Positions 1,241 through 60,827 of a DNA stretch of 64,000 bases are shown here, piece by piece; positions within the stretch are counted from its first letter, which is position 1; every line of letters begins with the position of its first letter. The DNA lies in the NCBI GenBank assembly GCA_044344595.1, contig JBIJCR010000003.1:5960-69959 (forward strand), in the 5' to 3' direction. Origin of the DNA: Terrimicrobiaceae bacterium. GTDB lineage: Bacteria > Verrucomicrobiota > Verrucomicrobiia > Chthoniobacterales > Terrimicrobiaceae. A model generated the notes under the pieces. The model worked only from the letters and a program-made list of their open reading frames with translations, was not told where the DNA came from and made no database searches. Both the position numbers and the translations under genes were made by a program.

Positions 1241-4200
1241 ATGAAACTCCGCGTCCCCTCAATCGCTGTTCTCCTCCTGCTACTCGCGGCCATTGGTGCC
1301 ATCTTCCTCTTCGTTAGGGGAACCGATAAAGCTTCCGGACCAGATTCCGGAATTGCGCGCTCCGAGTCATCACCCGTTGATCCATCACCTGCCGCCCCAG
1401 CTTCCGCCGCGCCCACCGCCTCCGCCCCATCGCCCGCTGCTGCTTCTCCCAGCGTGAAGCCCTCGACAGGACCGGTCGGCGCTTCGCTGGCCAATCCTTC
1501 ATCGCCCGCCTCGCCGAGCCCGGGTTCCCCAGCGCAGGCGGGCAGTTCCGCCTTGGACCGCTACCCCAACGCCGAGGTCGTCGCGCAATCCGAGATGCCG
1601 CTTGACGGATCCGGCGCCCAGGTGCAGCGCGTGCGCATCCTGCGGACGGAATTCAAATACCCGCTGGTGCGCATTGAGGAGACGGTGACCCGCACGGCCG
1701 GTGCGGAAAAAGTGACCGATTCGAAAGAAATGGTGGCCGATCATTTGATGGTGAAGCGTTCGCCCGAGGTGACCGAGGAAGCGTTTATTGCGGCGATCAC
1801 CGACGAAGGCGGTACGATCCGGAAAAAAATCCGCGGTGCGGACGGTGTTTACCTTGTGGCCTTCCCCGGGGAAGACACCGAGGCGCTTCCGGCAGCATTG
1901 CAAAAGTTCAGCACGGTGTCGGCCGCTTATGCTGAACCGGACTATATCGTCCGCTCCTTGCGCACGCCGAACGACGCAAGCTATCGGCAGCTCTGGGGAA
2001 TGCACAACGAAGGCCTGTTCCCTCAACGCTTTGGCACGGTAAGTGCTGGCGGCTTGGAATGGGTAGGTTTCACACTTCGTTACTCGGGTGTTGCGCCGGA
2101 ACCGGGCGTGACGGGCACAGTCTACGATTGTAAACTCGGGTATGAAGGGGATTTCCCCGAAGGCGTGCGCGGTAATATTGCCCTGATCCTGCGCGGGGAA
2201 ATCAGCTTTGAGCAGAAGGCGAGAAACGCCATGGCGGCCGGCGCAAAGGCCGTGATATTCTACAACAATGTGGCACAAGAATTGGAAGTTGCAACGCTCG
2301 GCACGCCCGACCCTTCTTGGCCGCCGGCCTTCATCCTTTCGGGTAGGAATGGCAATGCGCTGAAGGCTCTGGGCCAAGTGACAGCCACGATGGTGATCAG
2401 TGGTTCCTTGCCGGACGCCGACATTGACGCACCCGAGGCATGGGAAATCAACACCGGCAGCCGCGACATCTTGGTCGCCGTGCTCGACACGGGGGTCTTT
2501 TACCCCCATCCCGACCTTGCGGCCAACATGTGGACCAACCCCGGCGAATCGGGCCTCGACGCCGACGGCTTGGACAAGAGCACCAACGGCCTCGACGACG
2601 ACGGCAATGGCTACATCGACGATCTACGGGGTTGGGATTTCGTCAACAACGACAACGACCCGATGGACGACAACTTCCACGGGACCCACTGCGCGGGGAC
2701 GATCGGAGCGGTGGGAAACAACGGGCTAGGCGTCGCCGGCGTCTGCTGGGAGGTGTCGCTGGTCGGCCTGAAGTTTCTCGGTGCCAACGGTGGCGGCGCT
2801 CTCTCAGACGCTGTCGAAGCGGTTTTTTACTCAAATACACTCGGCGGCGACGCCCAGAAAAAAATCACCTCGAACTCTTGGGGCGGAGGCCCCTACACGC
2901 AGACTTTGGCAGACGCGATCGCCGCGGCCAACGAGAAAGAGATTCTCTTCATCGCGGCCGCTGGCAATGCTGACTCGAACAATGATATCACCCCCACCTA
3001 TCCGACCAATTATGACTTCCCGAATGTGATTTCCGTCGCCGCCACCGACCCGAACGATGAGTTGGCCGGTTTTTCCAATTTCGGTGCGACGACCGTTGAT
3101 CTCGCCGCCCCGGGCGTACAAACTTTCAGTACCTTTCCCGGCGGCGCCTATGCACCTATCAGCGGCACCTCGATGGCCACGCCCCATGTCGCCGGCACGG
3201 CTGCTCTCTTGTGGAGCTTCAGTCCGGAGCTTACCCCGGCGGAGATCAAAAGCGCCATTCTCGGCAGTGTCGATCCTTTGCCCGCCTTGGCGGACAAGTG
3301 CACCACTGGCGGGCGTCTCAATGCATTCAAAGCACTCTCCGCGGTTGGCATGGCTGTGAAATCCTCCACGCCCGTCCCGGGTTCGGTCCTGTTCTCCCAG
3401 CCCGTCGAATTCGTGGTTAACTTCAGTTTCTCCTACGCGCCCGCCTCGGTCGACGCCTCGGACTTCACGGTGAACGGAATCCCCGCCGATTCGTTTGTCC
3501 TCACGGATAGCGACACGGTGACATTTCGTTTCAACAGCACACCTGTCGGCCCGCAGGGTCAGTATACGATGGCGATGGCTTTCGGCGCGGTCAACCGCCT
3601 GCTCGACGACCTCGAGCTGAATGCATGGAGCGAAACATTTCGATATGACGCGGACGCCCTCACGGTCACTTCCACCTTGCCCGCGGATGGGGCCACCGTT
3701 TCGCTGCCGTTCACCACGCTCACTCTGAATTTCAACGAGGCGATCGACCCCGACAGCGTGGACGCGGCGGACTTCCGACTCAGCCAAGGCGCGGTGACCG
3801 GCGTGACCGTGGTGGACTCCGACACTGTGGAACTGGCATTGGTGAACATCGTTAAAGAGGGGACGCTCACTTTCACTATCCCCGCCGGGCGCATTACCGA
3901 CACATTTGGCAACCCGAACGTTGCTTACTCCGGCACCTATGAGCCAGACCTTGCCACAGTCGAGCTGCCTGCGGAAATCGCGGCGGTCGAACCGCGCGGC
4001 AGCATGGTTTTCGGCGCCACCCAAGCAGGCAGCATCACGACAGCCACGGACACCGACGGCTTCGGCATCCCGCTCGATGCGGGACAAATCCTCACCGTGC
4101 TCGCCGACCCCTCGGCGGGATTGCGGCCGACGGTCGAATTGCGCGACGCTTCGAATAATGTTGTCGCCACCGCAACTGCCGCAGGCGCCGGTCAGGACGC

Positions 4201-7200
4201 CGTGATCCAAGCCCATCCGATCTCCACCCCGGGTGTGTTTACCATCGTCGTGAGGGGTGCAGGAGGATCCAAGGGCACCTACACGCTGCGCCCGGTCATC
4301 AACGCCGTCCTCGAAGCCGAGAACCACGACGGCCCCGCGAACGACTCGCGCGCAGCCTCGCAGAGTCTGAACGCCGCGTTCATCCTTCCCGGCGGTCCTG
4401 TGGCCACGGCGACCGTGCTCGGCGAGACGCCGGAGGACTGGTTCAGCTTCACCCTGGGTGCCGGAGATAAGCTCAGCGCGACGCTCAAGACCTCCGGAGA
4501 CTCGGCGTTGGAAATCTATGACGGCACAGGCGCGCTGCTCGCCCGCAGTGTGGCCGGCCGGTTCAACGTTACCGAATTTATCGAAAAATATGTGGCCGGA
4601 TCCGCCGGCACCTACCATGCCCGGGTGATGGGAACGACCGGTTCCTACGCGCTCGTGCTGACGAAAAACGCGGCGTCCGACCTTGAGCAGAATGACAGCC
4701 ACGCCGCGGCTCAGGAAATCACCGGATACCCTGCGGCCTCGGGGGCAATCGTCCCCGGTGTCGGATTGTTTGCTGTGGAAAGTTGGAATGATTGGGATGA
4801 TACCACCCGGGCGCGCATCCACACGCTGGACCCGGTGACCGGCGCGATTATCAGAAGCTTCGATGCCCCGCAGCACCCAGAGGTAACAGTTCCCTACGGT
4901 GTCAACCTCGCCCATGACGGCACAAATTTGTGGTACTTACACATGTGGGACGCCGCAGACCCGACGGAACAGATTACTTTAAAGAAAACCATTCACAAGC
5001 TCAATGCCCTGACCGGAGAGAAGCTCGGATCGATCATCCATACCCCCGCACCAGACTTTGACATCACTGAAGCGCCCTATGGCCTCGCCTATGTCCGCGG
5101 GGAACTCTTCGTCGCAGACGGTACCAAGATCGATGTCTATTCGATCGCCACCGGCCAGTGGGTGCGGAGCATTGACTCGCCGATAGAGTTCAGGGCGTCC
5201 AACTTTGTGGGATTGGCTGGTGACAATGCCAACAACCACCTTTACGGCATCTCGCAAAGAGATAACAAAATCTACCGCATCGACCCCTCCGATGGAGCGC
5301 TCCTCGCCTCCTCCCCCGAGAACTTCCCATTGGGTCTCGTGCAGGGTATGGCCGTGGTCGCTGACGAGATTTTTATCTCAGCGATCGATGCCCTCTTAAC
5401 CAATTCCATGACGATCGACGTCTATGACCGGCTTACCTTTGAATTCAAGAGACGCATGCGCATTGCCATACCGAGGTTCATCGCCGGTCTGGGTGGCGAT
5501 GGAGCGGGAACCACAGACGACTGGTTCAGCTTCCGCGTGAATGAGGGCGATACCCTCGCCCTGGCGACCACAACACCCTTCGGGGAACCGCAGTCGCCTT
5601 ATTTCATCAACAACCCGCTCGACCCGCAGATCGAGCTCTACAGCCCTGAGAACACCTTGCTCGCGAGCAACGACAACGGTGCTGCCGACGGAAAAAACTC
5701 CGTGCTTTCGCACACGGCCACCGCCACCGGCCTCTACCGCGCCCGGGTGCGCGGTCTCAATCGCACCACGGGCGAATACGTCCTCACTGTGACCGGTGCG
5801 ACCGGCACCGCACCTGTTCCCCAGCTCGAGGCTGCCACACCGGCAAACGGTGACTTCCTCAAGGTCACGCCCACGGAGATCACGATCAATTTCGGTGCAC
5901 CCATCCTCCTCAGTTCGCTCCAGGCCAGCGACCTCACCGTGGATGGCGTCGCTGCGACTTCTTTCAGGATCGTGGACGGCGACACCGTCATCTTCACCCT
6001 GCCCACGGTCGGCGAGGGAGTCCGCAACGTTGCCATCGCTGCCGGGGCTATCCTTGCGGCAGACGGCACCGCGTTTGCAGGTTTCACATCGCAGTTCACC
6101 GTTGACCTCCGCGCGCCGCGGGTGATCTCGACTACTGTCCAGGAAAACGACTCGGTGCCGACCGGCAACCTCACCATTGCCATCCAGTTTAGCGAACGCC
6201 TCAAATCTGAAAACATCGACGCTACGGATTTCCTTCTCAGCGGCCCTCTCACGGGCAGACCCGAGGCCTCGTCCTTCAGCTACAATGCCAATACCTCGAC
6301 ACTCACGATCCAATACACGGGACTGGTCACCGAGGATCTCCTCACCTTCACGCTCCGCAGCGGGGATGGTAGGTTCGAGGATCCTGCGGGTAATGACCTC
6401 GACGGCGAATCCGTATTTCCCATGCCGCCGAACGAGTCTGGCGATGGCGTTGCCGGCGGCGACTTTGTCGTGAACTTCTTCGTGGACCAGGCCGGAGTTG
6501 GAGCACTCCCGGCGTTCACCGCGAGCGAACCGCGCGGCAGCCTTGCCTATACCTCGTCGAAGAGCGCCATGATCGCGCTGCCCGGCGATGCGGACAGCTA
6601 CACCTTCACGCTCGCCGCGGGCCAGACCCTTGCCGCCGCGGTGCGTCCAAACTCGACGTTACGCCCGGCGATCACTGTCACCGGCCCGGGCGGTAGCATG
6701 GGCAACGCCACGGCGACAGCCGCAGGGCAGGGGGCCTTGGTCCAAGCTGTGACTGCAGCCACGGCCGGCAACTATACGATCACCGTCACGGGTGCGGCGT
6801 CCACGACCGGATCCTACACAGTGGAGGCCGTGCTCAACGCCCTCGCCGAGGTGGAGAGCCGCAGCGGCGCAGATAATAATACCACCGCCAAAGCGCAGAA
6901 CATTGCAGCCAGTGCGCTCTCGCCGGCTCCCGGCGCTTCCCGCCTTGCCGTGGACGGGCGTGGCGATGGTATCAGCACCGAGGTGATTACCCCCGACAGC
7001 TTTGGCTATCACGCCGCGATGATCGGACACCGCTTCGAAGACATCAGCAAAACGGGCAACCGCTTGGTCATCGAACGTGACGATTTTGGTTATGCCATTG
7101 GCAACAGTATTTCCGCCACCGACCTCGCTGGCTTCACATTCCCGCTTTATGGCACGAATCACTCCAGCCTCTACATCAACGCCGAAGAGGGCTTGATCAC

Positions 7201-9862
7201 CTTCGGCGCCCCCTACAACTCGTTCTTTTGGGGTAATGTAGGGGACAAGGACCTCAGCATTTATCCTGTAACTCCCAGCATCGCCGTCCTGTGGAATCCT
7301 TGCCAGGTAGATCATTGGACGGGGCCGAACCTCGACCCGAATACAGGCGTTTACTGGCAGGTCCTCGGCTCGGGCGCAGACCGCCGACTCGTCATCCAAT
7401 GGCACAAAGTAGCTCACTGGCCTTCCCAGTATGTGCCAAACCCGACACCCATCACCTTTCAGGCTGTGCTCTACGCCAGCGGCGATATCGAGTTCAACTA
7501 CCCCGATCTCGACATTGCGCCGACTTCCGTTTATCAGGAGGGCATTTTAGCCGGTGTGGGAATCAAGGATGCCGGCACGCAGAGCCTCAAGCCGGCCTCG
7601 AAGCGCCTCTTGGTGAAGATGGGCAGGGGGAATAGCAGTCCGCCGATAGATAAGCTTCGCAGCGCCTATGTTGGCTCTGGCAAAAGCGTCCGAATCTCAA
7701 CCGGCATCGTCGCATCGCCCGGCGCGGATCATTTTGCCCTGCCTCTGACTGCGGGCGAAAAAGCCACCCTCGTCATCAACGGCGGTACAAGCACCGTGCT
7801 GGAGCTTCTCAACAGCGCTGGGGCGGTTGTGGCCACCGGCACCTCCGGCGCGACCAATCTCGCCCGGGCCATCCTTGATTACACGGTACCTTCGACCGGC
7901 ACCTACCAAGCAAGAGTCCGCGCCACCCTCGAGAGCCGATACACGCTCACCGCGCTCCGCGCGGGCGGCGGCATCGACCTCGAAGCCAACGACACCACCG
8001 GCACCGCTCAGGAGCTTAAACCCGTGATCTTCGGCGACACCACCGGCGGTGCGGATCATTACAAGGTGCTTCTGGCTCCGGGAGATACCATCGCGCTCCA
8101 GACCTACACACCCGCCGTCGGTGGGGGCGCAACTACAAACAATCTCGACCCGCGTATCGACGTCTATGACAGCACCGGTGCGCTGGTGGCTGGCAACGAC
8201 AATGGCGCAACCGACGGACGCAACGCCCTCGTCTCCTACACCGCCGCGGCCCCCGGCTTGCATTACATACGCGTGAGCGGCGCCTCCGGGGCCGGGGAGT
8301 ATTTGCTCACCGCATCCTATGCGGTTCGCACCCTGCCGGGCATCACCATATCCAGCCCGGGTAATGCGAACGTGAGTGTTCCCGCGAACGTTGGTCTGAT
8401 TCTCGAAGGTGCGGTCACGAGCAATAGCACGCCTCCCGGCACGGTCACCGCGACCTGGTCGAAGGTTTCGGGTCCGGGCACGGTCACGTTCGGCGACGCG
8501 GCCGCTGCTAACACCACGGCCAAGTTTTCCGCCAATGGCACTTACGTCCTCCGCCTCACGGCCGACGAAGCCGGCGTCCCGAACACCCGCGACCTCACAG
8601 TCAACGTGGGTGCAACGTCTCTCGTTTGGACCGGCCAAGACATCGGCGCCGTGGCTGCCGCGGGCAGCTACAGCGAGTCCGGTGGCGCCTTCACTGTGAA
8701 AGGTTCGGGTGCCGAGATCACCGGAACCAAGGATGAATTCCAATACGTCCACGTCCCTCTCACAGGAGATGGCGAGATGATTGTGCGCGTGGCTAGCTTG
8801 GTTACTCCGACCCCTTCCGCGCAGGCCAAAGCCGGCGTCATGATCCGCGAAACCACCGAAACCGGCTCAAGACATGCATCCTTGTTGATAAGCTCACGCA
8901 ACACGGATATCCCAGCCTTACTCCGGAGCCGCGCGGTCACCAACGGCACGGGTGCAAGCGTCACCATCTCCAACATGACCAGGCCGATCTGGCTGAAAAT
9001 CGTGCGGACCGGCAACACGTTGGCCGGATATACTTCGCCGGATGGCGTGACTTGGACCCAAGCGGGCTCGAATCTCAGCATCACGATGAATGCCAGCGTG
9101 CGCATCGGCCTCGCTGTCACCAGTGCCAACGACGGCACCCTCTGCACCGCGGTGTTCGACAACATCAGCACCACCGCCGGCATCTTTAACGTCGGAGCCA
9201 GCGTGAACGCCGGTGCGGACGCCACCATCAACAGCGAGGCCTCCACCGCTCTGGACGCCACCGTGACCGACGACGGGCGTCCGGCGCCGCTAGCCGTCGC
9301 GTGGAGCAAAGTCTCTGGCCCGGGCACGGTGACCTTCGGCAGCGACACGGCCATCGACACCACCGCCACGTTCAGCGAACCAGGCGATTACGTCCTGCGT
9401 CTCACCGCGAACGACGGCTGGGTGAAGACGTTCGACGAGGTGAGCGTGATCGTCCGTTCGACCGCGACCCCCGGGGACGCTTGGCGAGAGGCACTCTTTG
9501 GTACTACGGAAAATAGTGGCGTCGCCGCCGACTCGGCCGACCCTGACGGGGATGGTATGGTCAACCTTCTCGAGCGAGCGCTGGGATCTGATCCGAATTC
9601 GCGGTCGAGTGCCGACCTCCCTGTGTCTTCTCGCGAGATCGTTGATGGCGATGAATTCCTTGCCCTCACGATCCAAAAATCGCCAGATGCCACAGACGTC
9701 ACCTTCATTGTCGAGGTTAGCGCTGATCTCGCTACTTGGAACTCCGGCTCGGGACATACAACAATCATCGAGAATACCTCGACCATGCTGAAAGTCCGCG
9801 ACAACACGCCAATGCGAAGTGCCGCCAAGCGGTTCATTCGACTCCGCGTCACCAGCCCGTAG
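1241..9862 (+). CDS. Giant membrane-anchored/secreted S8 subtilase with PA-like insert, many Ig-like and PPC-type modules, and a PKD/LamG-like/PKD block
   Basis: 2873-aa ORF. It has an N-terminal hydrophobic anchor (SIAVLLLLLAAIGAIFLFV), a Pro/Ala/Ser linker and an I9-like propeptide. It carries a PA-like segment (NIALILRGEISFEQKARNAMAAGAKAVIFYNN). The subtilase triad motifs are VLDTG (Asp codon 2486-2488), HGTHCAG (His 2678-2680) and GTSMATPHVAG (Ser 3170-3172). Downstream there are repeated DWFSF...GxYxxxV PPC-like units and a C-terminal DxDxDG module. Confidence 0.9.
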   Translation: MKLRVPSIAVLLLLLAAIGAIFLFVRGTDKASGPDSGIARSESSPVDPSPAAPASAAPTASAPSPAAASPSVKPSTGPVGASLANPSSPASPSPGSPAQAGSSALDRYPNAEVVAQSEMPLDGSGAQVQRVRILRTEFKYPLVRIEETVTRTAGAEKVTDSKEMVADHLMVKRSPEVTEEAFIAAITDEGGTIRKKIRGADGVYLVAFPGEDTEALPAALQKFSTVSAAYAEPDYIVRSLRTPNDASYRQLWGMHNEGLFPQRFGTVSAGGLEWVGFTLRYSGVAPEPGVTGTVYDCKLGYEGDFPEGVRGNIALILRGEISFEQKARNAMAAGAKAVIFYNNVAQELEVATLGTPDPSWPPAFILSGRNGNALKALGQVTATMVISGSLPDADIDAPEAWEINTGSRDILVAVLDTGVFYPHPDLAANMWTNPGESGLDADGLDKSTNGLDDDGNGYIDDLRGWDFVNNDNDPMDDNFHGTHCAGTIGAVGNNGLGVAGVCWEVSLVGLKFLGANGGGALSDAVEAVFYSNTLGGDAQKKITSNSWGGGPYTQTLADAIAAANEKEILFIAAAGNADSNNDITPTYPTNYDFPNVISVAATDPNDELAGFSNFGATTVDLAAPGVQTFSTFPGGAYAPISGTSMATPHVAGTAALLWSFSPELTPAEIKSAILGSVDPLPALADKCTTGGRLNAFKALSAVGMAVKSSTPVPGSVLFSQPVEFVVNFSFSYAPASVDASDFTVNGIPADSFVLTDSDTVTFRFNSTPVGPQGQYTMAMAFGAVNRLLDDLELNAWSETFRYDADALTVTSTLPADGATVSLPFTTLTLNFNEAIDPDSVDAADFRLSQGAVTGVTVVDSDTVELALVNIVKEGTLTFTIPAGRITDTFGNPNVAYSGTYEPDLATVELPAEIAAVEPRGSMVFGATQAGSITTATDTDGFGIPLDAGQILTVLADPSAGLRPTVELRDASNNVVATATAAGAGQDAVIQAHPISTPGVFTIVVRGAGGSKGTYTLRPVINAVLEAENHDGPANDSRAASQSLNAAFILPGGPVATATVLGETPEDWFSFTLGAGDKLSATLKTSGDSALEIYDGTGALLARSVAGRFNVTEFIEKYVAGSAGTYHARVMGTTGSYALVLTKNAASDLEQNDSHAAAQEITGYPAASGAIVPGVGLFAVESWNDWDDTTRARIHTLDPVTGAIIRSFDAPQHPEVTVPYGVNLAHDGTNLWYLHMWDAADPTEQITLKKTIHKLNALTGEKLGSIIHTPAPDFDITEAPYGLAYVRGELFVADGTKIDVYSIATGQWVRSIDSPIEFRASNFVGLAGDNANNHLYGISQRDNKIYRIDPSDGALLASSPENFPLGLVQGMAVVADEIFISAIDALLTNSMTIDVYDRLTFEFKRRMRIAIPRFIAGLGGDGAGTTDDWFSFRVNEGDTLALATTTPFGEPQSPYFINNPLDPQIELYSPENTLLASNDNGAADGKNSVLSHTATATGLYRARVRGLNRTTGEYVLTVTGATGTAPVPQLEAATPANGDFLKVTPTEITINFGAPILLSSLQASDLTVDGVAATSFRIVDGDTVIFTLPTVGEGVRNVAIAAGAILAADGTAFAGFTSQFTVDLRAPRVISTTVQENDSVPTGNLTIAIQFSERLKSENIDATDFLLSGPLTGRPEASSFSYNANTSTLTIQYTGLVTEDLLTFTLRSGDGRFEDPAGNDLDGESVFPMPPNESGDGVAGGDFVVNFFVDQAGVGALPAFTASEPRGSLAYTSSKSAMIALPGDADSYTFTLAAGQTLAAAVRPNSTLRPAITVTGPGGSMGNATATAAGQGALVQAVTAATAGNYTITVTGAASTTGSYTVEAVLNALAEVESRSGADNNTTAKAQNIAASALSPAPGASRLAVDGRGDGISTEVITPDSFGYHAAMIGHRFEDISKTGNRLVIERDDFGYAIGNSISATDLAGFTFPLYGTNHSSLYINAEEGLITFGAPYNSFFWGNVGDKDLSIYPVTPSIAVLWNPCQVDHWTGPNLDPNTGVYWQVLGSGADRRLVIQWHKVAHWPSQYVPNPTPITFQAVLYASGDIEFNYPDLDIAPTSVYQEGILAGVGIKDAGTQSLKPASKRLLVKMGRGNSSPPIDKLRSAYVGSGKSVRISTGIVASPGADHFALPLTAGEKATLVINGGTSTVLELLNSAGAVVATGTSGATNLARAILDYTVPSTGTYQARVRATLESRYTLTALRAGGGIDLEANDTTGTAQELKPVIFGDTTGGADHYKVLLAPGDTIALQTYTPAVGGGATTNNLDPRIDVYDSTGALVAGNDNGATDGRNALVSYTAAAPGLHYIRVSGASGAGEYLLTASYAVRTLPGITISSPGNANVSVPANVGLILEGAVTSNSTPPGTVTATWSKVSGPGTVTFGDAAAANTTAKFSANGTYVLRLTADEAGVPNTRDLTVNVGATSLVWTGQDIGAVAAAGSYSESGGAFTVKGSGAEITGTKDEFQYVHVPLTGDGEMIVRVASLVTPTPSAQAKAGVMIRETTETGSRHASLLISSRNTDIPALLRSRAVTNGTGASVTISNMTRPIWLKIVRTGNTLAGYTSPDGVTWTQAGSNLSITMNASVRIGLAVTSANDGTLCTAVFDNISTTAGIFNVGASVNAGADATINSEASTALDATVTDDGRPAPLAVAWSKVSGPGTVTFGSDTAIDTTATFSEPGDYVLRLTANDGWVKTFDEVSVIVRSTATPGDAWREALFGTTENSGVAADSADPDGDGMVNLLERALGSDPNSRSSADLPVSSREIVDGDEFLALTIQKSPDATDVTFIVEVSADLATWNSGSGHTTIIENTSTMLKVRDNTPMRSAAKRFIRLRVTSP

Positions 9863-9957
9863 CCTGACTGTCACGGGCCACGGCACCAGCTATTCAGGAA
9901 TGCAACGCGGATGACAACAGGAGTCCAAATAGCTTGCTTACAGCGGGCGATTCGGAC

Positions 9958-12900
9958 ATGAATTACCGCCAGATGATGACTAGGGCCACTACGATTCTGG
10001 CCGCAGTGGCTCTGTCGCTGGCTACCCACGGCGCGGTGATGGCTGGTGTCACACCGTATCCTGCCCTTGCCCCCGACCTTTCCAGCTACGACGTGACAGC
10101 CGGCAGTACGGTGGTCCCGGTGGGCAAGCTCTGGCAGGAGCGGGGCGTGAAGTTCCCCGGGGAGGTGTATGACAAGCCTTCCTGGGCTCTGAGCGTTGCC
10201 CGCTTCGCTTCCGATCAGGGCTCGGTGCCCATCACGGTGACCGCATCCGAGCCGATTGTGCAATACCGTATCCAGCCTGACAGCCAGGGCATTTCCGCCA
10301 GCGTCAATGGCAACCAGTTGACCTTCACCCTTTCGGCGCCCACCAAGATCAAGTTGCAGATCAATAATTTGGAGGAGATGTACCTGTTCTATGATCCGCC
10401 GGAGGTCGGCGCCCCGCAGCTCGGCGATCCGGGCGTGACCAACGTGATGAGCTTTGTGATCGACAATACCGGTGCTACCAAGCAGACCGTGCAGGTTCAG
10501 GCCGCCCTCGATCATGTGCACCGGCAGGGCGGTGGCGTGCTTTACTTCCCTAACGGCACATACAAGGTCGGCCATCTGGACATCCGCAGCAACACCCATG
10601 TGTACCTGTCGCCCGGCGCGCTCATCCAAGGCTCGGGCGATTTCGCCGACTTTGAGTATGGTCGTGACTGGAATGACCAACTGATCGAGGGCCCGTTCAT
10701 CGGCATCAAGGACGCCCGGAATGTCAAAATCTCCGGCCGGGGTGTGATCGACGGCGCTGGCCGTGCCCTGCGCGACTGGCAGAACAACAACCCTTATTGG
10801 AACGGAACCAAGTGGACACTCACGCCCGGACGCAAAGCCAAAGCGATGCTGCTCCGCCCCCAGAGCAGCAGCAACATCGAGATCCGCGATGTCATTCTCC
10901 GCGATGCTTACACGTGGAACCTGCACATCCTCGATTCCGACTATGTCAACGTGGACAATGTGAAGATCATCAATGAACTGGGCGTAGCCGGCTGGTGGTT
11001 CAACTCGGGCGACATGTGGAACACCTGCGACGGCATCGACATCGACTCCTCCAGCCACATCACCATCAATGACTGTTTCATTCGCGGCGGCGATGACTGC
11101 ATCTCGATCAAGCCCGCCACCGATCGGTATGGTTTGGCCCGGTCCCTGGTCACCGACATCGATGTGACCAATACCACCGTCGAAGGCTGGAACTACTTCA
11201 AGCTCGCCGAAAAAGTCGAAGGGCAGACCGTAACCGACATCCGCCTTATCAACTTCGACGGCATGACCAATATAAACGGCGGCGGCATCATGCTCGAGCG
11301 CGGCGGCGAGAAGATGCTCTACGACAACTGGCTCTTCGAGAACTTGCGCATGGACGAAGCCACCGATGCCTTTGTCATCTACACCCTCTCGCTTGGCGAT
11401 GCATCCGACTATGTTTACATGAGCAACTGGACGTTCCGAAATGTCACGCTTCCCAACTTCGACACCTCCAGCATACTGGGTTCCGACGAGACGCATACAA
11501 TTGCCGGCTTTTCCTTCGAGAACCTCGCCATCTCGGCAAAGGTGATCACCAATGCCGCTGAAGCGAACATCAGCGTCAACTCCTGGGCCAACATCACCTT
11601 CAGAAACGGCCAGGGAAATACCAACTCGTATTTCCATGAGGCCGAGAGCCTCCCTCGCACGGGGACCTTGTCCAGCAGTGTCGTCTCCGACGTCAACCGA
11701 AGTGGCGATGCGACCGTCCGGACGGCGCAGACCAGCGGTTCCGGCCAGTATGTCGAATTCGCCGTCAACGTGCCCGTCTCCGGCACCTATAAGGTCCTCG
11801 TGAATTACGAGGAGGGCGGCGACAAGGGCAGGTTCGATTTTGAGGTCGACGGCAACCAGATCGGCACCATCGACATGTACCAATATATCTCGCGATATTT
11901 CCCGCGCTTCGAGACCGGGGTGAGGGCCCGGGTGGCCGCATTCGATCATGTCACACTCGCCGCCGGAAGCCACACGTTCCGTTTTGTGCGCCTCGATTCC
12001 AATCCCGACAGCAGCGGAAATATCGGCGAATGGGACTGCTTCACGCTGGTTGCTGATGACGGGGTTCCGACCGTGCGCATGATGACGGGCGTCCACGGCG
12101 CCGCGGAATCCGGTCCGGTCGCCGGCTCCGCCATCGTCACGCGCACCAACAACGTTGGGGATCTCACTGTCTTCTACGAGGTTGCCGGCTCTGCCGTGAA
12201 CGGCATCGACTACCAGGCCCTCAGCGGTTCGCTGGTCATCCCCCACGGCCAGCACTCCGCTCCCATCACCATCGCCCCCATCGGAGACGACCTGAAGGAA
12301 GGTGTCGAAACCGTGCGTCTCACGCTCCGCGCCGGCGCCGGATATCGCCCGGCCATCCCATCGGGCGCATCCATCGATATCCTTGACCGCCTCGCTTCGC
12401 CTCTCGTGGGCATCGCCCCCGCCCAATCGAGTTTTGCCGAAAACGCCGGGCAGGGCGCTGTGCGAATCACCCGCCAGTCAACCGTCGGCGACCTCCTTGT
12501 CAGTTACGTTGTAGGCGGAACAGCCACCAGCGGTATCGATTTCCAGTCGCTTCCCCTCAGCGTGGTGATTCCAGCCGGCCAGTCGTTTGTCGATATCCCC
12601 GTCGTTGGCATCAGCGATACCGTCGTCGATCCGGATGAAGCCGTGGTCATCACCCTGGCCGCCGGCGCCTACACCGTGGTCGGCTCCGGTGCCGCTACGA
12701 TCCACATTGATGATGATGAGAATCCCGGAACACGCACCCGACTCGTCTCCTATGATGGCATCACCAACAACTACGCAACCACCAACCTGAACTTCAGCCG
12801 CACGCCCTCGGTGGTGGTCGGTGATTACGATGGTGATGCCGCCGGCGACGATGTGCGTCACACCGTCGCCTTCAGCTCTGCCGCCCCCCTCAACCCCGCC

Positions 12901-14880
12901 TCCGGCTACTCGGGTCCCGCTTTCTACGGCGGCTTCCTCGGCGAACGGATCAACAGCACCGGTGGCGCCGGCATGCTGGCCCGGGTGAGGGCCACCACCA
13001 TGGCGAATCTGACTGACAGCCCTTACGTCAGCTTATCCAACAGCGCCGCCAGCCGCAACGGCCTCTACGGACTGATCTACTTTCCCACCGACTCCAGCAC
13101 CTTCGATCAATACTCCACCCTCGAATTGGGCACCATAGCCCGCGCTAACGTCGATCTCCGCTGGCTTGTCCGAGAGGGGAACCAGTTCTGGGTCTCCAAG
13201 CAGACCATGGGTGAAACAGGGGCGATCCGTGCCACACTCACCTTTGACAGCGATGGTCCCGACGGCTATTGGGCGCCATACGATCCGGCCGCCAACCTCA
13301 ACTTCAACGAAGCCCAGGCTTTCCAGCTGAAACAGTTCTACGACATCACTGCGGTTGGCTACCTTGTCGACACCTCGGACTCGCAGAATCTGGTCCGGAC
13401 TGCCGAATGCGGATTCTTCGCTGCAACCGGCCTCGTCAACGCGCCGACCACGCAGACTCTCTCCCTTTCGGTCATCGACGCCATAGCTTCCGAAGTCGCC
13501 TCCGACCCCGGACAGTTCCAGTTCACCCGCTCCGACACCAACGGCGATCTGGTAATCGATTACGTCCTCGCCGGCACGGCGCGCAACGCCGATGATTATA
13601 TCACTCTTCCGGGATCGGTGACCATTCCCAATGGCCAGTCTGTCGCCACTGTGATGGTCACTCCACTCGAAGACGCCGTCATCGAAGGTATTGAAAGCGT
13701 TTCCCTCGCCTACGCCCGCCTGAGCAATCCCGCCTATCATGTCATCAACGGTCAGGTTGCACTGGACATACAGGACGGCCAATACCAGCCGACAGTTCCC
13801 TCCATCATCCTCACCGCCACCGATGCCAGTGCGGCCGAGGCTGCACAGGAACCCGGCGTCTTCTCTGTCACCCGCGCCGGTGGTATTGCTGGCGACCTGA
13901 CCGTCAACTACACCATTGGCGGCACGGCGACCAACGGCACGGATTACAGCACGATCTCGGGCTCGGTGGTGATCCCGGACGGTCAGACCTCTGCCACCAT
14001 CACGATCAGCCCAGTCGATGACAGTCTCATCGAGGGCAGTGAGACCGTGACGCTGACCCTGGCCGCAGGCTCGGGTTACACGATCGGCGCCCAGAGCAGC
14101 CATGCGGTGATGATCGTTGACAATAAAGTCTACGAAATTCCGGTCGCGAGCATTGCCTCGAGCGGTGCTGTCGCATTCGAGGCCGGCGGCGATCCAGGCG
14201 CATTCACGGTGACACGCAGCGGTGCGAGGGCCGGAGCACTGACGGTGTTCTACACGATCAGCGGCACGGCCAGCAACGGCACGGATTACACCGCGATCTC
14301 GGGTTCGGTGGTGATCCCGGACGGTCAGACCTCTGCCACCATCACGATCGCCCCCGTCGATGACAGCCTCATCGAGGGCAGTGAGACCGTGACGCTGACC
14401 CTGGCCGCCGGGGCGGGTTACGCAATCGGCGCGCAAAGCAGTTATACGGTGACCATCGCCGACAACGACTCCGACGTGCCCCTATCGTCCATTGAGAGTT
14501 GGCGCCAACTGTACTTCGGTGCACCCGACAACACCGGCGATGGGGCGGATCTCAACGACTTCGACCAGGACGGCATCCAGAACCTGTTGGAATTCGCCTT
14601 CGGCCTGGATCCGAAACAGAACAGCACTGGACAAATCCCCACGCCGCAAGAGACCGGCGGCAACTTCGTATTAGCCTTCACCCAACCAGCCGATGTCGCC
14701 GGCATAACCTATGGCGCGGAATGGAGCGAAACGCTGGCACCCGGAAGTTGGACCGACGTACCCGACACCGGCAATACCGCGGCATCCCCACCAGAGCACA
14801 TCTTCAGCGTGCCCGTCGGCACCAAGACAAACCTCTTCATGCGGCTGAAAGTGACCAATCCGGTTTCCTTAAGCCCATAA
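9958..14880 (+). CDS. Giant secreted right-handed beta-helix glycosidase (GH28-like) with CBM-like domain and five Calx-beta domains
   Basis: The track ORF begins at TTG 9934, but ATG 9958 gives a signal peptide (MNYRQMMTRATTILAAVALSLATHGAVMA). GH28-type motifs are NTCDGIDID (about 11021-11047) and GGDDCISIK (about 11086-11112). A CBM6/35-like block follows (HEAESLPRTG...GTYKVLVNYEEGGDKGRFDFEVDG). There are five G-DL-V-Y...G-A--G-DY...G-(V/L)-IP-GQ Calx-beta units and a C-terminal DxDxDG module. Confidence 0.85.
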   Translation: MNYRQMMTRATTILAAVALSLATHGAVMAGVTPYPALAPDLSSYDVTAGSTVVPVGKLWQERGVKFPGEVYDKPSWALSVARFASDQGSVPITVTASEPIVQYRIQPDSQGISASVNGNQLTFTLSAPTKIKLQINNLEEMYLFYDPPEVGAPQLGDPGVTNVMSFVIDNTGATKQTVQVQAALDHVHRQGGGVLYFPNGTYKVGHLDIRSNTHVYLSPGALIQGSGDFADFEYGRDWNDQLIEGPFIGIKDARNVKISGRGVIDGAGRALRDWQNNNPYWNGTKWTLTPGRKAKAMLLRPQSSSNIEIRDVILRDAYTWNLHILDSDYVNVDNVKIINELGVAGWWFNSGDMWNTCDGIDIDSSSHITINDCFIRGGDDCISIKPATDRYGLARSLVTDIDVTNTTVEGWNYFKLAEKVEGQTVTDIRLINFDGMTNINGGGIMLERGGEKMLYDNWLFENLRMDEATDAFVIYTLSLGDASDYVYMSNWTFRNVTLPNFDTSSILGSDETHTIAGFSFENLAISAKVITNAAEANISVNSWANITFRNGQGNTNSYFHEAESLPRTGTLSSSVVSDVNRSGDATVRTAQTSGSGQYVEFAVNVPVSGTYKVLVNYEEGGDKGRFDFEVDGNQIGTIDMYQYISRYFPRFETGVRARVAAFDHVTLAAGSHTFRFVRLDSNPDSSGNIGEWDCFTLVADDGVPTVRMMTGVHGAAESGPVAGSAIVTRTNNVGDLTVFYEVAGSAVNGIDYQALSGSLVIPHGQHSAPITIAPIGDDLKEGVETVRLTLRAGAGYRPAIPSGASIDILDRLASPLVGIAPAQSSFAENAGQGAVRITRQSTVGDLLVSYVVGGTATSGIDFQSLPLSVVIPAGQSFVDIPVVGISDTVVDPDEAVVITLAAGAYTVVGSGAATIHIDDDENPGTRTRLVSYDGITNNYATTNLNFSRTPSVVVGDYDGDAAGDDVRHTVAFSSAAPLNPASGYSGPAFYGGFLGERINSTGGAGMLARVRATTMANLTDSPYVSLSNSAASRNGLYGLIYFPTDSSTFDQYSTLELGTIARANVDLRWLVREGNQFWVSKQTMGETGAIRATLTFDSDGPDGYWAPYDPAANLNFNEAQAFQLKQFYDITAVGYLVDTSDSQNLVRTAECGFFAATGLVNAPTTQTLSLSVIDAIASEVASDPGQFQFTRSDTNGDLVIDYVLAGTARNADDYITLPGSVTIPNGQSVATVMVTPLEDAVIEGIESVSLAYARLSNPAYHVINGQVALDIQDGQYQPTVPSIILTATDASAAEAAQEPGVFSVTRAGGIAGDLTVNYTIGGTATNGTDYSTISGSVVIPDGQTSATITISPVDDSLIEGSETVTLTLAAGSGYTIGAQSSHAVMIVDNKVYEIPVASIASSGAVAFEAGGDPGAFTVTRSGARAGALTVFYTISGTASNGTDYTAISGSVVIPDGQTSATITIAPVDDSLIEGSETVTLTLAAGAGYAIGAQSSYTVTIADNDSDVPLSSIESWRQLYFGAPDNTGDGADLNDFDQDGIQNLLEFAFGLDPKQNSTGQIPTPQETGGNFVLAFTQPADVAGITYGAEWSETLAPGSWTDVPDTGNTAASPPEHIFSVPVGTKTNLFMRLKVTNPVSLSP

Positions 14881-15037
14881 ACGGATTTTTAGACAGGAGG
14901 GCAGGATGGAGATGATTGACAGGAAAGGCTTTGGCTTTTGTTTGATATCGCACAAATCATTTCAAACCCATCGCATCATAAACAGATCATCCTCTGTGTT
15001 CTCTGTGCGCTCTGTGGTTAATTCTGCTGTATTCGGG
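14874..15037 (+). mobile_element. 164-bp MITE-like element, copy A
   Basis: Near-identical to the copies at 46910..47073 (+), 55877..56040 (-) and 59426..59589 (-). Its left end (cccATAAacgg) is mutated relative to the consensus cccgaaaacgg and contains the TAA stop (14878-14880) of the upstream gene. The flanks TTAAG and TTCAA do not match. Confidence 0.55.
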
Positions 15038-15355
15038 TTCAACGATCGCAAGAGAGTGTGTACCAATAGCTGTGTGGTTTGTGACTCTCGTTCAGATTGT
15101 GCTAGGGGTTGATCCTATGGGTCTTGGGAGTAAGTACCTCCTCAGATCGGTAGGCTCCCAAGAGCCGGATGCGCGCGAATATGTGCTGCTGAAGGCCCTT
15201 GGTAGGCTTTGTGCGGAGCACCACCTCCCCTATGTTGTGGTGATGTCGTAGGCCAATGCCGCGACGTTTACATCATCTACGCCACCTTTTTCAGCAGTAA
15301 GCGTTGCGCTGAATTAGCTGCTGGCAATGATAGGGATTTCCGAATACAGTGATCT

Positions 15356-45723: not shown

Positions 45724-46767
45724 TTAAAAAAAAGACTTCAGTTTGGCGTTGCCGTGAACAAATTCGTCTTGGCGGTGTGTGGCATCATAACCCATGCAGG
45801 TGCTGTGGGGAATTTCCAGCACCCGGAAGGCTCCGCGAGGGATCTGCGCCAATGCGGTTTCAATAAGCCATGGCGACCAATCGGGGTCATCGTGCGGCCA
45901 TAGGCCTTCGCCATAGAGAGAGAGTCCGCCTCCACCGTGGTCCACATTCACCATGCCGTATTCTTGCAATGCCCGGGCCACAACCCTGCCTCCCCGGCCC
46001 AATGGCAGCTTATCCAGATCAAGGTTGGGGTCTAGTTGCAGCACCGCACCTTGGGGAATGCCTCCGGGCATACATCCATCACACCAAATGGCTGGTGCAC
46101 AAAATTCCTTGTAGGCTGCGAAGTAGGTGGCAAAAGCCAGTTTGTGCTCGATACGCCCGCGGCGGATTTCATCTCGCATGATCAAACCTGCGATGGCAGG
46201 TACGCCCGGAGCCCTGCTGGGACCGTAGAGGTGTACACTCTCCCCGTCTTCCGGCCCCGGGTCAAGTTTCTCAAAAACTCCGCTACCATCCAAAGCGTAG
46301 GTCATGCCGGTGCAGGATTCCCAACCGCCTTCTGCACGTTGGGAAAGCGCCCACATGTCCCAAGCCACTCCGCGCTCGCGGTCGACCAAGGCCAGGTGTG
46401 CATCGCCTTGGCCATCTGGTCGTGCATTTACGGGCAAAGGGATGAGCGGGCCAAACCCCGGTCCGTGGCCGTAAGGATGTCCTGGACAAAGTCGGTGACG
46501 GCTGTGCTCCAAAAAGTATTGCATATGTTTTTGCTCATATGTGCTTGCGGCTTTGCGCTCGAAAGACCGATGAATCTGGACCAGCGGAGTCTTGTCATCC
46601 ACCTCATAAACCGGGATCGTCCATTCCCTGAGATTGATGTAGAGGCCGAGTGGATTGTCGCATTCCAGCATGCGGATCCACAACGCGCTACGCGGGTCGG
46701 TAGGGGTGGACTCGGAAATGGGTTGGTTCCAGAAGCTGTCTGCGGAGAAAAAGCGGTCGTTACTCAT
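45724..46767 (-). CDS. Conserved protein of unrecognised family (paralog 2)
   Basis: 347 aa, no signal peptide. Paralog of 35953..36900; the shared blocks are listed under that feature. Confidence 0.8.
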   Translation of the reverse strand: MSNDRFFSADSFWNQPISESTPTDPRSALWIRMLECDNPLGLYINLREWTIPVYEVDDKTPLVQIHRSFERKAASTYEQKHMQYFLEHSRHRLCPGHPYGHGPGFGPLIPLPVNARPDGQGDAHLALVDRERGVAWDMWALSQRAEGGWESCTGMTYALDGSGVFEKLDPGPEDGESVHLYGPSRAPGVPAIAGLIMRDEIRRGRIEHKLAFATYFAAYKEFCAPAIWCDGCMPGGIPQGAVLQLDPNLDLDKLPLGRGGRVVARALQEYGMVNVDHGGGGLSLYGEGLWPHDDPDWSPWLIETALAQIPRGAFRVLEIPHSTCMGYDATHRQDEFVHGNAKLKSFF

Positions 46768-46909: not shown

Positions 46910-47073
46910 CCCGAAAACGGTTTTTTAGACAGGAGGGCAGGATGGAGAGAAATTACAGGAAAGGCTTTGGCTTTTGTTTGATATCGCACAAATCATTTCA
47001 AATGCATCGCATCATAAATAGATCATCATCAGTGTTCTCTGTGCGCTCTGTGGTTAATTCTGTTGTATTCGGG
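46910..47073 (+). mobile_element. 164-bp MITE-like element, copy B
   Basis: Left end CCCGAAAACGG. The reverse complement of the right end is CCCGAATACAA, against CCCGAATACAG in the other copies (the other copies match the left end at 9 of 11 positions). It is flanked by identical TTCAG at 46905-46909 and 47074-47078. Confidence 0.6.
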
Positions 47074-47164
47074 TTCAGTTCGTTTGGCAGTGGTTGAGCG
47101 GTCGCAAATATCAGGAACCTCACCACCGGATGTTCAAACAATGGCTTTGTGCCGACACCCTAAG

Positions 47165-55600: not shown

Positions 55601-55734
55601 AAACCGACCACGGCAGCCACGATGAAATCGAGGAACGCTATGCAGGCCAGCTGGAAGTTTATCGCCAAGCCGCCTGCGACTTGCTGGGTCTCTCAACCGA
55701 CTGCGTGAAGATCAAAATCCTCTGCGTGCGCTGA
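52657..55734 (+). CDS. addA: AddA-like UvrD/Rep-family helicase with C-terminal PD-(D/E)XK nuclease
   Basis: Walker A NAGSGKTYAL, motif II LLDEFQDTS, VGDTKQAIYSWRGG, IMNVHQSKGLGFD and YVALTRAKKALYVV. C-terminal nuclease block GVFDRVLV...IIYDFKTD. Confidence 0.85.
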   Translation: MTNQRLIANAGSGKTYALTTRMIQLLDRDVEPSRIAALTFTRKSAGEFLSAVFKRLAEAAQDSKKLADLQMEDGLADLDAARCRALLARLALQIGRLGMGTIDSFFARIARAFPLESGLAEDFAMAREAEILSAHERTLAALFANESAASLSDFIDLLRRINRTHGERDVFKNLLEETKNLHEKFLATPRGSVWGDAAAIWEAGCAILNSKHDLPACVLEFRTLMQKTSPDLSDEHREKWMSWLDEASSWTNGTMASASLKEFFKKLQSLKNDPKTGRQIIANGQGSPKNGRIYFDDDLLLLRQQIIEGILKLEFESLLERSRSLHALMQKFEDSYASLVRSAGLVTFGDITDSLARKAGDEAWRLSAGYRIDQKFDHWLLDEFQDTSRPQWKILWTFIEEILSNPEGGRSFFYVGDTKQAIYSWRGGDPNLFFEIFDQINKKGYFIEDAPPLNESYRSCQAILDFVNKVFGDLGPVKTALEIPDSVAAKWASAWTEHIVSPKTRDLDGYAEWVSIPKNTGDEEEEGDAPDRKILQILQTTEPWKRGLSCAVLKRDNKGVAALASLLQSKDIPVAVEGKTNPCVDNPLGASFIAALRLCASPDDKIAAAVVNGFPATAAWGVGDGWKFRRETLASVAQSGFAPTIRRWIEASDLEAEPFLKERAAAFLLAAEEFDACRKSSDGIPDFLRFVKNRQTQENEASGVVRIMNVHQSKGLGFDMVIVSGLDKRGGNDGAKIALGPSADEAKWGVLMPAKDIAVHDTVLDAQLKIEEADEKFGEICTAYVALTRAKKALYVVTNELGETTKAKNFARHLLLQFGASSASIGNANWYRDHAIGDAATDPVASTSNPFCAQLHGTPKPASPSDYKAESASGSNFANLSLDAAALGTEVHEALAGIEWFESGTRLSENLSQQAEKLLLGFLDKPIAQEVFTKPAHPHNLWRERAFDVTLEGQWVSGVFDRVLVHCSDEGLPMSAIIYDFKTDHGSHDEIEERYAGQLEVYRQAACDLLGLSTDCVKIKILCVR

Positions 55735-55876
55735 ATAAATGATCTGTCGATCCCACGTCGGCTCAACTCTTCGGTATAATACTCCTCGTCCAGTGCAAAT
55801 TCGCGCTGGAGGCCAATTGAGACAACCTCACGTATTTTGCCAATGAGCTCACCTTCGTGGCTTCCGCCAAGTTGAA

Positions 55877-56040
55877 CCCGAATACAGCAGAATTAACCAC
55901 AGAGCGCACAGAGAACACAGAGGATGATCTGTTTATGATGCGATGGGTTTGAAATGATTTGTGCGATATCAAACAAAAGCCAAAGCCTTTCCTGTAATTT
56001 CTCTCCATCCTGCCCTCCTGTCTTAAAATCCGTTTTCGGA
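55877..56040 (-). mobile_element. 164-bp MITE-like element, copy C
   Basis: Flanked by identical TTGAA (forward strand) at 55872-55876 and 56041-56045. Its right-hand ~110 nt are identical to copy A. Confidence 0.6.
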
Positions 56041-56155
56041 TTGAACCAGGATGGCAACCTCTCTCGCGTCGTCTGCAACAAGGAATTCCCCCTCCGCTCG
56101 ATCCGCATAGGTTTGCCATTTACGTTAGCTGAGTCTCGACTATTTGTCTTTTTGT

Positions 56156-57976: not shown

Positions 57977-58004
57977 TACCAACCTAAAAAAATTAAAATA
58001 TTTC

Positions 58005-58033
58005 TTGACCAACATGCGTCGGTTTGATTTTAT
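58005..58033 (+). promoter_or_regulatory. Candidate promoter giving a (near-)leaderless transcript for 58040..58705
   Basis: TTGACC (58005-58010), a 17-nt spacer, then TTTTAT (58028-58033), then only 6 nt before the ATG at 58040. There is no SD motif. Confidence 0.3.
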
Positions 58034-58039
58034 CACTCC

Positions 58040-58705: not shown

Positions 58706-58712
58706 CGATTCC

Positions 58713-59255: not shown

Positions 59256-59425
59256 GATCGCCCAATAGGACTCCAATCATTCCGTCTTCATTGGTGGAAT
59301 TGATAGCCTGCCGCGTGGCTGAGTATTATGTTCAAAATACTCATTTGCTTGAATTTCTCTATTTTTTATCAACTGGATTCCTTGAAATTATAGCCCGCAG
59401 GAGTCGGAGTCCATGTCTTGTTAAA

Positions 59426-59589
59426 CCCGAATACAGCAGAATTAACCACAGAGCGCACAGAGAACACAGAGGATGATCTGTTTATGATGCGATGGGTTTG
59501 AAATGATTTGTGCGATATCAAACAAAAGCCAAAGCCTTTTCTGTAAAATCTCTCCATACTGCCCTCCTGTCTAAAAATCCGTTTTCGAG
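59426..59589 (-). mobile_element. 164-bp MITE-like element, copy D
   Basis: Flanked by identical TTAAA (forward strand) at 59421-59425 and 59590-59594. It has about 8 mismatches to copy C, all in the SD/ATG-proximal third. Confidence 0.6.
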
Positions 59590-59637
59590 TTAAATACCAT
59601 TCCCGAGGACTTGAGGCAGTGGGCCAGCCTGACGGAC

Positions 59638-60123
59638 TCACCCTACTACAGCAACAAGCCATTCTTGCAAGCTACCGTAGATGCCCATTCGCATAAGGGC
59701 GAATTCTCGTGGATCGTCTAGATCTCGCGGTGCGCGGCTGAGATCGGCGTCGGCGAATTGGTGAATCTCAGCCAGTGCGAGGCGGGCTTGATTCAGTGCG
59801 TTGAGCCAGAGATCGATGTGTTTACGCGGAATGGTGAATTTCAGTGATCCATCGGGATTGCGCTGCGCACTACGGAGGTCGGCAGCGACGGATTCTCGCG
59901 CGGCGAGGAAGCTATCGTGCAGGTCCGTTTCGACGAGGGATTTCCAATCATCCAAAAGATCCACTTCCTCCACATCTTCCGAGGGCTGAGGAAAAAGACG
60001 CGACTCGACCAATGGATCGCCCGACTCCACCGGCTCCCGAATCGAGCAGAGTATCTGGTAAAAAGAATCTTCCACCTGATCAAAAAAAACCGAGCCGTTT
60101 GGGAGTATTTGAATTTTAATCAT
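59638..60123 (-). CDS. Acidic hypothetical protein downstream of clpS (possibly DUF2017-like)
   Basis: 161 aa and rich in D/E. Its position after clpS recalls the clpS-DUF2017 pairing I remember from Actinobacteria. I did not verify homology. Confidence 0.6.
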   Translation of the reverse strand: MIKIQILPNGSVFFDQVEDSFYQILCSIREPVESGDPLVESRLFPQPSEDVEEVDLLDDWKSLVETDLHDSFLAARESVAADLRSAQRNPDGSLKFTIPRKHIDLWLNALNQARLALAEIHQFADADLSRAPRDLDDPREFALMRMGIYGSLQEWLVAVVG

Positions 60124-60505
60124 TTTCGGATTTTGGACAGAATTAACAGAATTCTAAAATTAAGCACAACCGAGCGAAGTGAGATAGAGCGCTGAAGGCG
60201 GCCCCGGAGGGGTGAGTGAAACGAATCAAAGGACACAGAGGACACAGAGAATGTGAGTTGGTTGCACTTTCAAAAGCCTTCAATGTTTCTTCAATATACC
60301 TCTCCTAAAAATTCCTGTTAATCCTTTAAATTGATTCACTGCGCCTACCACTTGGGTTGTCTACAGCAGTCTTTTTCGCGCAGCTTCGATTCTGTCATCT
60401 TGTATAAAAATCCGTTTTCAGAATTAGCAGGATGGAGGTCTGTGTATTCAACCCTACTTCATCTTCCTCCTCCGTGTTCTCTGTGTCCTCTGTGGTCAAA
60501 ATTTT
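60124..60505. repeat. Degenerate, rearranged relatives of the 164-bp element, including an 18-bp long-range inverted repeat
   Basis: cggattttggacag (60127-60140) resembles the element's left end. cacagaggacacagagaa (60234-60251) is the exact reverse complement of ttctctgtgtcctctgtg (60477-60494). aaaatccgttttc and gcaggatggagg occur at 60407-60437. Confidence 0.45.
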
Positions 60506-60531
60506 GTATTTAAACCTCTAAAACCTCGCTG

Positions 60532-60822: not shown

Positions 60823-60827
60823 GGTTT

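Follow-up and report, generated by a model that had tools for sequence, protein, structure and literature searches.

A probable family of 164-bp miniature inverted-repeat transposable elements with 5-bp target-site duplications in uncultured freshwater Verrucomicrobia

A family of 164-bp repeats was characterized in a stretch of 64,000 nucleotides from a Terrimicrobiaceae bacterium (assembly GCA_044344595.1, contig JBIJCR010000003.1, positions 5,960 to 69,959 of the forward strand), hereafter the window. Four copies, designated A to D, were studied together with related loci on public contigs, and we put at about 0.88 the probability that the repeats belong to a small non-autonomous transposon, namely a miniature inverted-repeat transposable element (MITE). 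This reading, already proposed in a preliminary description of the window, is supported by inverted repeats, 5-bp duplications, presence at many unrelated loci and absence of orientation bias; the mechanism of spread set out below is inferred from these sequence signatures. The family is spread through a genus-level group of uncultured freshwater Verrucomicrobia and is apparently undescribed, on the basis of negative searches of Rfam, of a plasmid database and of the literature; in the latter, no MITE of Verrucomicrobia and no TTNAA-targeting transposase was described. The copies in the window are as follows.

14874..15037, plus strand: MITE copy A, 164 bp, with a mutated left inverted repeat (CCCATAAAC)
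46910..47073, plus strand: MITE copy B, 164 bp, upstream of the gene 45724-46767 (minus strand), whose start is 143 nt away, and 328 nt downstream of the SASA-esterase gene 47401-49338 (minus strand)
55877..56040, minus strand: MITE copy C, 164 bp, between the UvrD/PD-(D/E)XK helicase-nuclease gene (52657-55734, plus strand) and an Ig-like-domain gene (56144-57976, plus strand)
59426..59589, minus strand: MITE copy D, 164 bp, flanked by the convergent genes 58764-59255 (plus strand) and 59638-60123 (DUF2017 gene, minus strand)

The length of 164 bp includes, as outermost bases, the first C of CCCGAAAAC and the last G of TTCGGG. All four copies were found at the coordinates claimed in the preliminary description and are near-identical, as it had stated (pairwise identity 92.1-95.7%), with two copies on each strand. 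The right-hand identity of copies A, C and D, claimed to be of about 110 nt, was measured as 114 nt (element positions 51-164), and the differences are concentrated in the left 50 nt. The outer bounds given earlier for this feature, 14869-15042, coincide exactly with copy A plus both 5-bp flanking repeats. The G+C content of the element is 43%, versus approximately 59% for the window and the genome. Each of three internal motifs (23-26 nt) was counted four times, compared with 0.00 expected from dinucleotide-preserving shuffles.

Each copy is bounded by short terminal inverted repeats (CCCGAAAAC...GTATTCGGG). The left end is CCCGAAAACGG, with single-base variants, and the right end is CTGTATTCGGG, which as reverse complement reads CCCGAATACAG; the repeats pair at nine of the 11 outermost positions, and the termini are kept in all full copies. 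Immediately outside them lie 5-bp direct repeats, which vary between copies and agree between the left and the right flank. Those of the window are listed below.

14869..14873, plus strand: left flanking 5-mer of copy A, TTAAG, degenerate target-site duplication
15038..15042, plus strand: right flanking 5-mer of copy A, TTCAA
46905..46909, plus strand: left target-site duplication of copy B, TTCAG
47074..47078, plus strand: right target-site duplication of copy B, TTCAG
55872..55876, minus strand: target-site duplication of copy C, TTCAA (right side in element orientation)
56041..56045, minus strand: target-site duplication of copy C, TTCAA (left side in element orientation)
59421..59425, minus strand: target-site duplication of copy D, TTTAA (right side in element orientation)
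59590..59594, minus strand: target-site duplication of copy D, TTTAA (left side in element orientation)

The flanks were compared over 27 distinct insertions, comprising the window copies and the loci on public contigs (the latter with handles of the form L004). The two 5-mers agree perfectly in 15 of them and at four of five positions in a further seven, with a mean of 4.15 matches. When the left flank of one copy was paired with the right flank of another, a control that takes the target preference into account, only 21 of 702 pairs were perfect (3%) and the mean was 2.86. In the target logo, position 2 is T and position 4 is A without exception (21/21 each), position 1 is T in 15/21 and position 5 is A in 13/21, giving the symmetric consensus tTNAa. 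Co-varying 5-bp flanks of this kind are the mark of insertion by a putative transposase making 5-bp staggered cuts. On L044 (1236-1243), two head-to-head elements have one TTTAA in common (…AAAAATCCGTTTTCGGG TTTAA CGCGAAAACGG…), which suggests that the same target was used repeatedly.

Outside the window, an exact 25-mer of the core was found at 13 loci in five metagenome-assembled genomes (MAGs) of Verrucomicrobia, labelled Spartobacteria, Terrimicrobiaceae or Verrucomicrobia, and seven of the 13 fall on separate contigs of a single MAG. A 23-mer of the left end was found on 33 lake-metagenome contigs, the highest number per contig being three copies (on one of 12.9 kb). The repeat is therefore not restricted to the window; restriction to it was one of the outcomes that the preliminary description had named as refuting its reading. 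The outside copies are 88-95% identical to those of the window, and their flanks have no similarity to it, so that the conserved untranslated regions (UTRs) named in the same place as a second refuting outcome were not encountered either. The exception is the metagenome contig L046, which has 99.7% identity to window positions 59462-63081 and represents the window's own population. Contig ERZ27272052 k141_1297775 and the JGI sample 3300044628 likewise match the window at 99.9-100% identity. In two pairs of loci the insertions are orthologous, the flanks from the two MAGs being themselves 92-94% identical, and part of the spread is therefore vertical. Subfamilies track the genome of origin (GTTAATTCTGCTGTATTC versus GTTAGTTCTGCTGGATTC), as expected from lineage-specific bursts. 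The core 25-mer was not found in viral contigs, nor the element in the plasmid database.

All examined copies are intergenic or touch only the 3' end of a gene, often lying tens of bases from it, and none is inserted in frame inside a gene. Relative to the upstream gene, about 17 distinct copies are co-directional and nine opposite (duplicates removed by eye), a difference that is not significant (two-sided binomial p about 0.17). The independence of orientation from neighbouring genes, first remarked upon for the four copies, thus holds in a larger sample. When reversed, each of the four window copies has a co-directional gene 140-330 nt upstream of it; the idea of a 3'-UTR element was rejected, the larger sample having no such rule.

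These features agree with those by which a MITE is recognized. The element is of 164 bp, and its sole open reading frame (ORF), a frame of 44 codons, has no transposase homology; inverted repeats are accompanied by a duplication of fixed length that is specific to each insertion; and at least 27 distinct insertions occupy multiple non-homologous loci in either orientation. In the mechanism proposed, an autonomous element would supply in trans a DDE-type transposase, which would bind the inverted repeats and cut with a 5-bp stagger at TTNAA-like sites. The intergenic location would follow from the rarity of such sites elsewhere in a G+C-rich genome.

Besides the canonical copies, modular relatives were found. 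The variants have the termini in common and differ in internal modules and in the number of NNCTCTGTG 9-mers, of which there are usually three, six in L009 (30-100) and two in L040 (289-443); the block is partly deleted in L043 (11065-11224), and its variation resembles that of a short tandem array. The variable spot around position 40 is interrupted in L015 (10872-11096) and L022 by a G+C-rich hairpin module of about 61 nt (…GGAGCGCAGCGGAGAAAGACTGCCGAAGGCAGCC…), which is present twice in L018 (1444-1725) and occurs in the window at approximately 60340-60400. This module is apparently flanked by an AAT duplication, and is possibly a second, nested mini-element. The right half differs in L020, L028, L038 and L044, and L031 contains a 161-bp version with another core. 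Two members of this kind lie in the spacer between clpS and the DUF2017 gene.

60147..60422, minus strand: 276-bp relative, with left end TCTGAAAACGGATTTTTATAC, a CTCTGTG block, the GC-rich hairpin module and right end ...TTTTAGAATTCTG, flanked by CTAAT/TTAAT
60427..60516, plus strand: partial diverged copy, left terminus missing, retaining GCAGGATGGAGG ... CTCTGTGGTCAAAATTTTGTATTT

The spacer (window 60124-60517) thus contains about 370 nt of nested MITE-family material, namely the 276-bp relative and the partial inverted copy. Co-transcription of clpS and the DUF2017 gene, if it occurs, has to pass through these elements. The length of this spacer was compared at five orthologous loci. It is approximately 400 nt in the window and in L062 (85.5% identical) and 115 nt in L064 (82% identical), in which window positions 60164-60415 are missing and only TTAAT-TCTGAAATTCTG-TTAAT is retained at the site of the 276-bp relative; this remnant looks like an excision footprint or an internal deletion. 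In L066 and L068, both 72-75% identical, the spacer is of 67 and 49 nt, respectively, and has no element sequence.

Several observations weigh against the interpretation as a MITE. Empty sites in relatives, proposed as a check in the preliminary description, were seen for the 276-bp relative (L064, L066 and L068) but not for canonical copies: the four of the window are fixed in all near-identical contigs available, and for A and D no contig with the exact flanking protein was without the copy, these contigs being 99.4-100% identical to the window and of the same population. Two candidate empty-site pairs, L004/L030 and L005/L043, proved to be rearranged rather than empty. The flanks of copy A, TTAAG and TTCAA, agree at only three of five positions. 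The interior is unusually well kept, as the 114 nt identical across A, C and D illustrate; recent amplification or gene conversion explains this, although functional constraint is also conceivable. No autonomous element with the MITE termini was found: in about 400 kb of DNA, paired ends at a distance of 0.5-6 kb that also had agreeing duplications were absent, and the only pair of ends at such a distance was a chance pairing of copies D and C. A comparison of the element peptide with 1.84 billion representative proteins matched 15 short proteins and no transposase.

An insertion sequence (IS) of the IS3 family in the same communities was considered as a source of the element, or as the agent mobilizing it, which we regard as unlikely. 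An intact IS of 1.5 kb, occupying the whole of contig L047, was reached through homologues of a transposase found at a junction on L034; it encodes OrfA (HTH_Tnp_1) and OrfB (HTH_21/rve/rve_3) and has the inverted repeats TGGACCCCGAAAATCGGACCACTGG and ...CCAGTGGTCTGAAAATCGGGGCCA. This IS was also observed on L023 (4390-5000), L048 and L053. Its inverted repeats hold CCCGAAAA(T)CGGA, similar to the left terminus of the MITE, and its right repeat (CCCCGATTTTCAGACCAC) loosely resembles the right terminus (CCCGAATACAG...AACCAC). In addition, the decayed IS copy on L023 lies on a contig that also has MITE copies, and an IS3-family transposase pseudogene is joined at its 3' end to the outermost 26 nt of the MITE left end on L034, L026 and L049. 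Outside the common motif, however, the IS bears TG...CA tips, which are missing from the MITE with its CCC...GGG ends; the junction on L034 consists of the IS without its last 180 nt or so and a 26-nt MITE fragment, and is a deletion or insertion scar instead of a true end; no MITE termini were found on the IS copies; and the element peptide does not match the IS transposase. IS3-family members have 5'-TG...CA-3' ends and duplicate 3-5 bp. The 5-bp duplication is compatible with a derivative of this family and the tips are not. Although the motif CCCGAAAA(T)CGGA is common to both, the internal sequence of the IS is unrelated to that of the MITE.

It was also considered, as a rather improbable addition to the MITE reading, that the element carries a working translation-start module or a small gene. 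A perfect AGGAGG Shine-Dalgarno sequence (element positions 22-27) is followed after 5 nt by an ATG (33-35), the first 44 codons are encoded by the element, and the frame exits through its right end. The predicted ORFs in the window are the following.

55763..56008, minus strand: outward ORF from copy C, a putative gene, with its ATG at element position 33
14906-15112, 46942-47097 and 59369-59557 (the last on the minus strand): equivalent predicted ORFs of copies A, B and D

Frame +3 is the sole one of six open over all 164 nt; in 17 of 19 distinct canonical copies the ATG is retained and the frame is free of stops. In the frame of the ATG, distinct substitutions comprise 17 synonymous, 25 non-synonymous and no stop changes (8/31/4 and 7/32/4 in the other frames); for the observed transition/transversion mix, 10.9 synonymous changes were expected (permutation P = 0.019, post hoc). 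The variable spot at positions 40-45 is altered by substitutions only, and the frame is therefore kept; gene callers predict such ORFs as well, in 15 protein clusters. On the other hand, the ORF had been noticed before the test, and P is about 0.1 after correction for six frames, while the chance of one open frame in 164 nt of such composition is estimated at about 20%. Diverged members keep the nucleotides and not the protein: in L028 the peptide is different and is terminated after 24 codons, in L031 termination comes after eight, the ATG is ACG in L038, and the 61-nt insert breaks the frame in L015 and L022. The C-terminal part of each predicted protein is arbitrary flank sequence, and no homology to known proteins was found, only the 15 short predicted proteins being matched. 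A mobile translation-start cassette, with its 44-codon leader under weak purifying selection (omega about 0.5), therefore seems to us improbable. If it were true, each insertion would give rise to a novel small protein or link translation to that of the gene beyond it, and a non-autonomous element, being more than selfish DNA, would rewire expression in its hosts.

Least credible, and in our view highly improbable, is that the repeats represent a structured non-coding RNA gene in several copies, or else a conserved UTR, a terminator or a regulatory element of the REP kind: although the interior is conserved across species (88-95%), the plus strand folds as a long imperfect hairpin (-49.4 kcal/mol versus -35.3 for the other strand) and copies lie close to gene ends, the flanking 5-bp duplications co-vary between sides, orientation preference is absent, the fold z-scores of -1.39 and +0.29 are not significant, and the RNAalifold covariation term of the 18-copy alignment is 0.01, with essentially no compensatory pairs. 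Only insertion explains the co-varying flanking duplications, and a conserved UTR or an RNA gene is excluded as their source for this reason. Rfam gave no match at the gathering score in the whole window, its best sub-threshold match (a CRISPR repeat model, E = 0.27) being at chance level, and scans for sigma-70-like promoter and intrinsic-terminator patterns found none. REP/BIME elements, mobilised by RAYT, and palindromic elements of the IS200/IS605 type are 20-40-nt palindromes or have subterminal hairpins, and have neither inverted-repeat ends nor a target duplication (cf. PMC3733652). Such an element is ruled out here by the length of 164 bp, the inverted-repeat ends and the 5-bp duplication.

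Copy A touches the end of a large gene. The ORF 9934-14880 encodes 1648 aa (about 1640 in the preliminary description), with GH28, pectate-lyase-like and three Calx-beta domains, and its stop, in agreement with public gene calls, lies within the element.

14878..14880, plus strand: TAA stop of the 1648-aa Calx-beta/GH28 gene, element positions 5-7, in the left inverted repeat of copy A

The left end of copy A reads CCCATAAACGG, versus CCCGAAAACGG in the other copies, and this mutated end is fixed in the population. The ORF ends ...agc CCA TAA, where element positions 1-7 supply the third base of the Ser codon and all of CCA (Pro) and TAA; the Leu and first Ser codons of the C-terminal tail overlap the left 5-mer. 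Had this end not been mutated, the frame would have stopped four codons further on, at a TAG inside ATTTTTAGAC, giving ...SPKTDF*. The mutation therefore shortened the tail and did not create the sole possible stop. Accordingly, the earlier statement that copy A supplies the stop of the giant gene stands insofar as the TAA is inside the element and its left end is mutated, but an unmutated element end would also stop this frame.

The last 130 aa of this protein form a domain without a Pfam model, frequent at the C-termini of Verrucomicrobia proteins. Its relatives almost always end ...(K/R)VT(S/N)P*, while the Calx-beta protein ends ...KVTNP-VSLSP*, with a five-residue tail not seen in them. 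When the flanks of copy A were rejoined, a Cys-rich extension of 25 codons unlike any homologue was obtained, so that the ancestral stop is not recoverable from the window. The effect on the stop codon is regarded as incidental, the insertion lying a few bases beyond the normal end of the gene. The neighbouring giant gene 1241-9862 (2873 aa) has the same C-terminal domain of about 130 aa with the same ending (window 9470-9862 versus 14490-14880), the pattern being WRQ..FG…GDGADLNDFDxDGIxNLLEFAFGLDP…RLKVTSP*. Within the Calx-beta gene, a direct repeat of 288 nt (window 13836-14123 and 14178-14465, 81% identical) reflects the tandem arrangement of Calx-beta domain units.

Copies C and D, which have a common orientation, enclose a 3.4-kb stretch of lower G+C content (56041-59425; 0.49-0.51 versus about 0.59). 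Three genes lie in it, one with an Ig-like domain and two hypothetical. In the 85%-identical relative L062, synteny extends exactly to the stop codon of the DUF2017 gene, adjoining copy D. The stretch is possibly a MITE-bounded variable islet.

Public contigs end inside the copies with high frequency, seven of ten within copy A (L071-L076 and L078, at window positions 14902-15014) and five of eight within copy D (L056, L057 and L059-L061, at 59435-59534). This is the usual behaviour of assemblers at dispersed repeats, and the element is a systematic cause of breaks.

Bacterial MITEs include the Correia elements of Neisseria, the enterobacterial ERIC/IRU, the pneumococcal RUP and the cyanobacterial Nezha. 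Like them, the present element is within 100-300 bp, non-coding, intergenic and in both orientations, has inverted repeats and target-site duplications, forms lineage-specific subfamilies and occasionally alters the ends of neighbouring genes. Unlike them, it has short inverted repeats (about 9-11 bp), a modular interior with a variable 9-mer array and a host in an uncultured freshwater lineage of Verrucomicrobia, and there is no sequence similarity; the duplication is of 5 bp at tTNAa, whereas Correia elements and RUP duplicate TA. Rickettsia palindromic elements (RPEs) and some other MITEs become part of coding sequences. As in RPEs, one frame is open through the element and one copy gives a host gene its last two codons and stop, but copies are intergenic or only touch the 3' end of a gene, and none lies in frame inside one. 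Tn3-derived TIMEs have inverted repeats of about 38 bp starting with GGGG and a 5-bp duplication; the latter fits, but inverted repeats of about 11 bp starting with CCCG do not, and this assignment was rejected. IS1380/ISEcp1, IS1634 and ISH3 produce 4-5-bp duplications, and IS1380-family ends start with CC. The likeness to these families and to TIMEs consists of the 5-bp duplication at A+T-rich sites and, for IS1380, of the CC start; no transposase of any of them was found near the element or sharing its termini, and they constitute a lead only.

The existing understanding of the MITE mechanism is unchanged by these results. They provide, for the ecologically common freshwater Spartobacteria/Terrimicrobiaceae, a host group apparently without described transposable elements, a mobile element defined by its termini, its 5-bp tTNAa target, its consensus and its variants. 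The element accounts for the fragmentation of public assemblies at particular places, and marks recent genome change at a gene end, in an operon spacer and at a synteny break. It also offers a sequence tag for the tracking of strains and for the hunt for its transposase.

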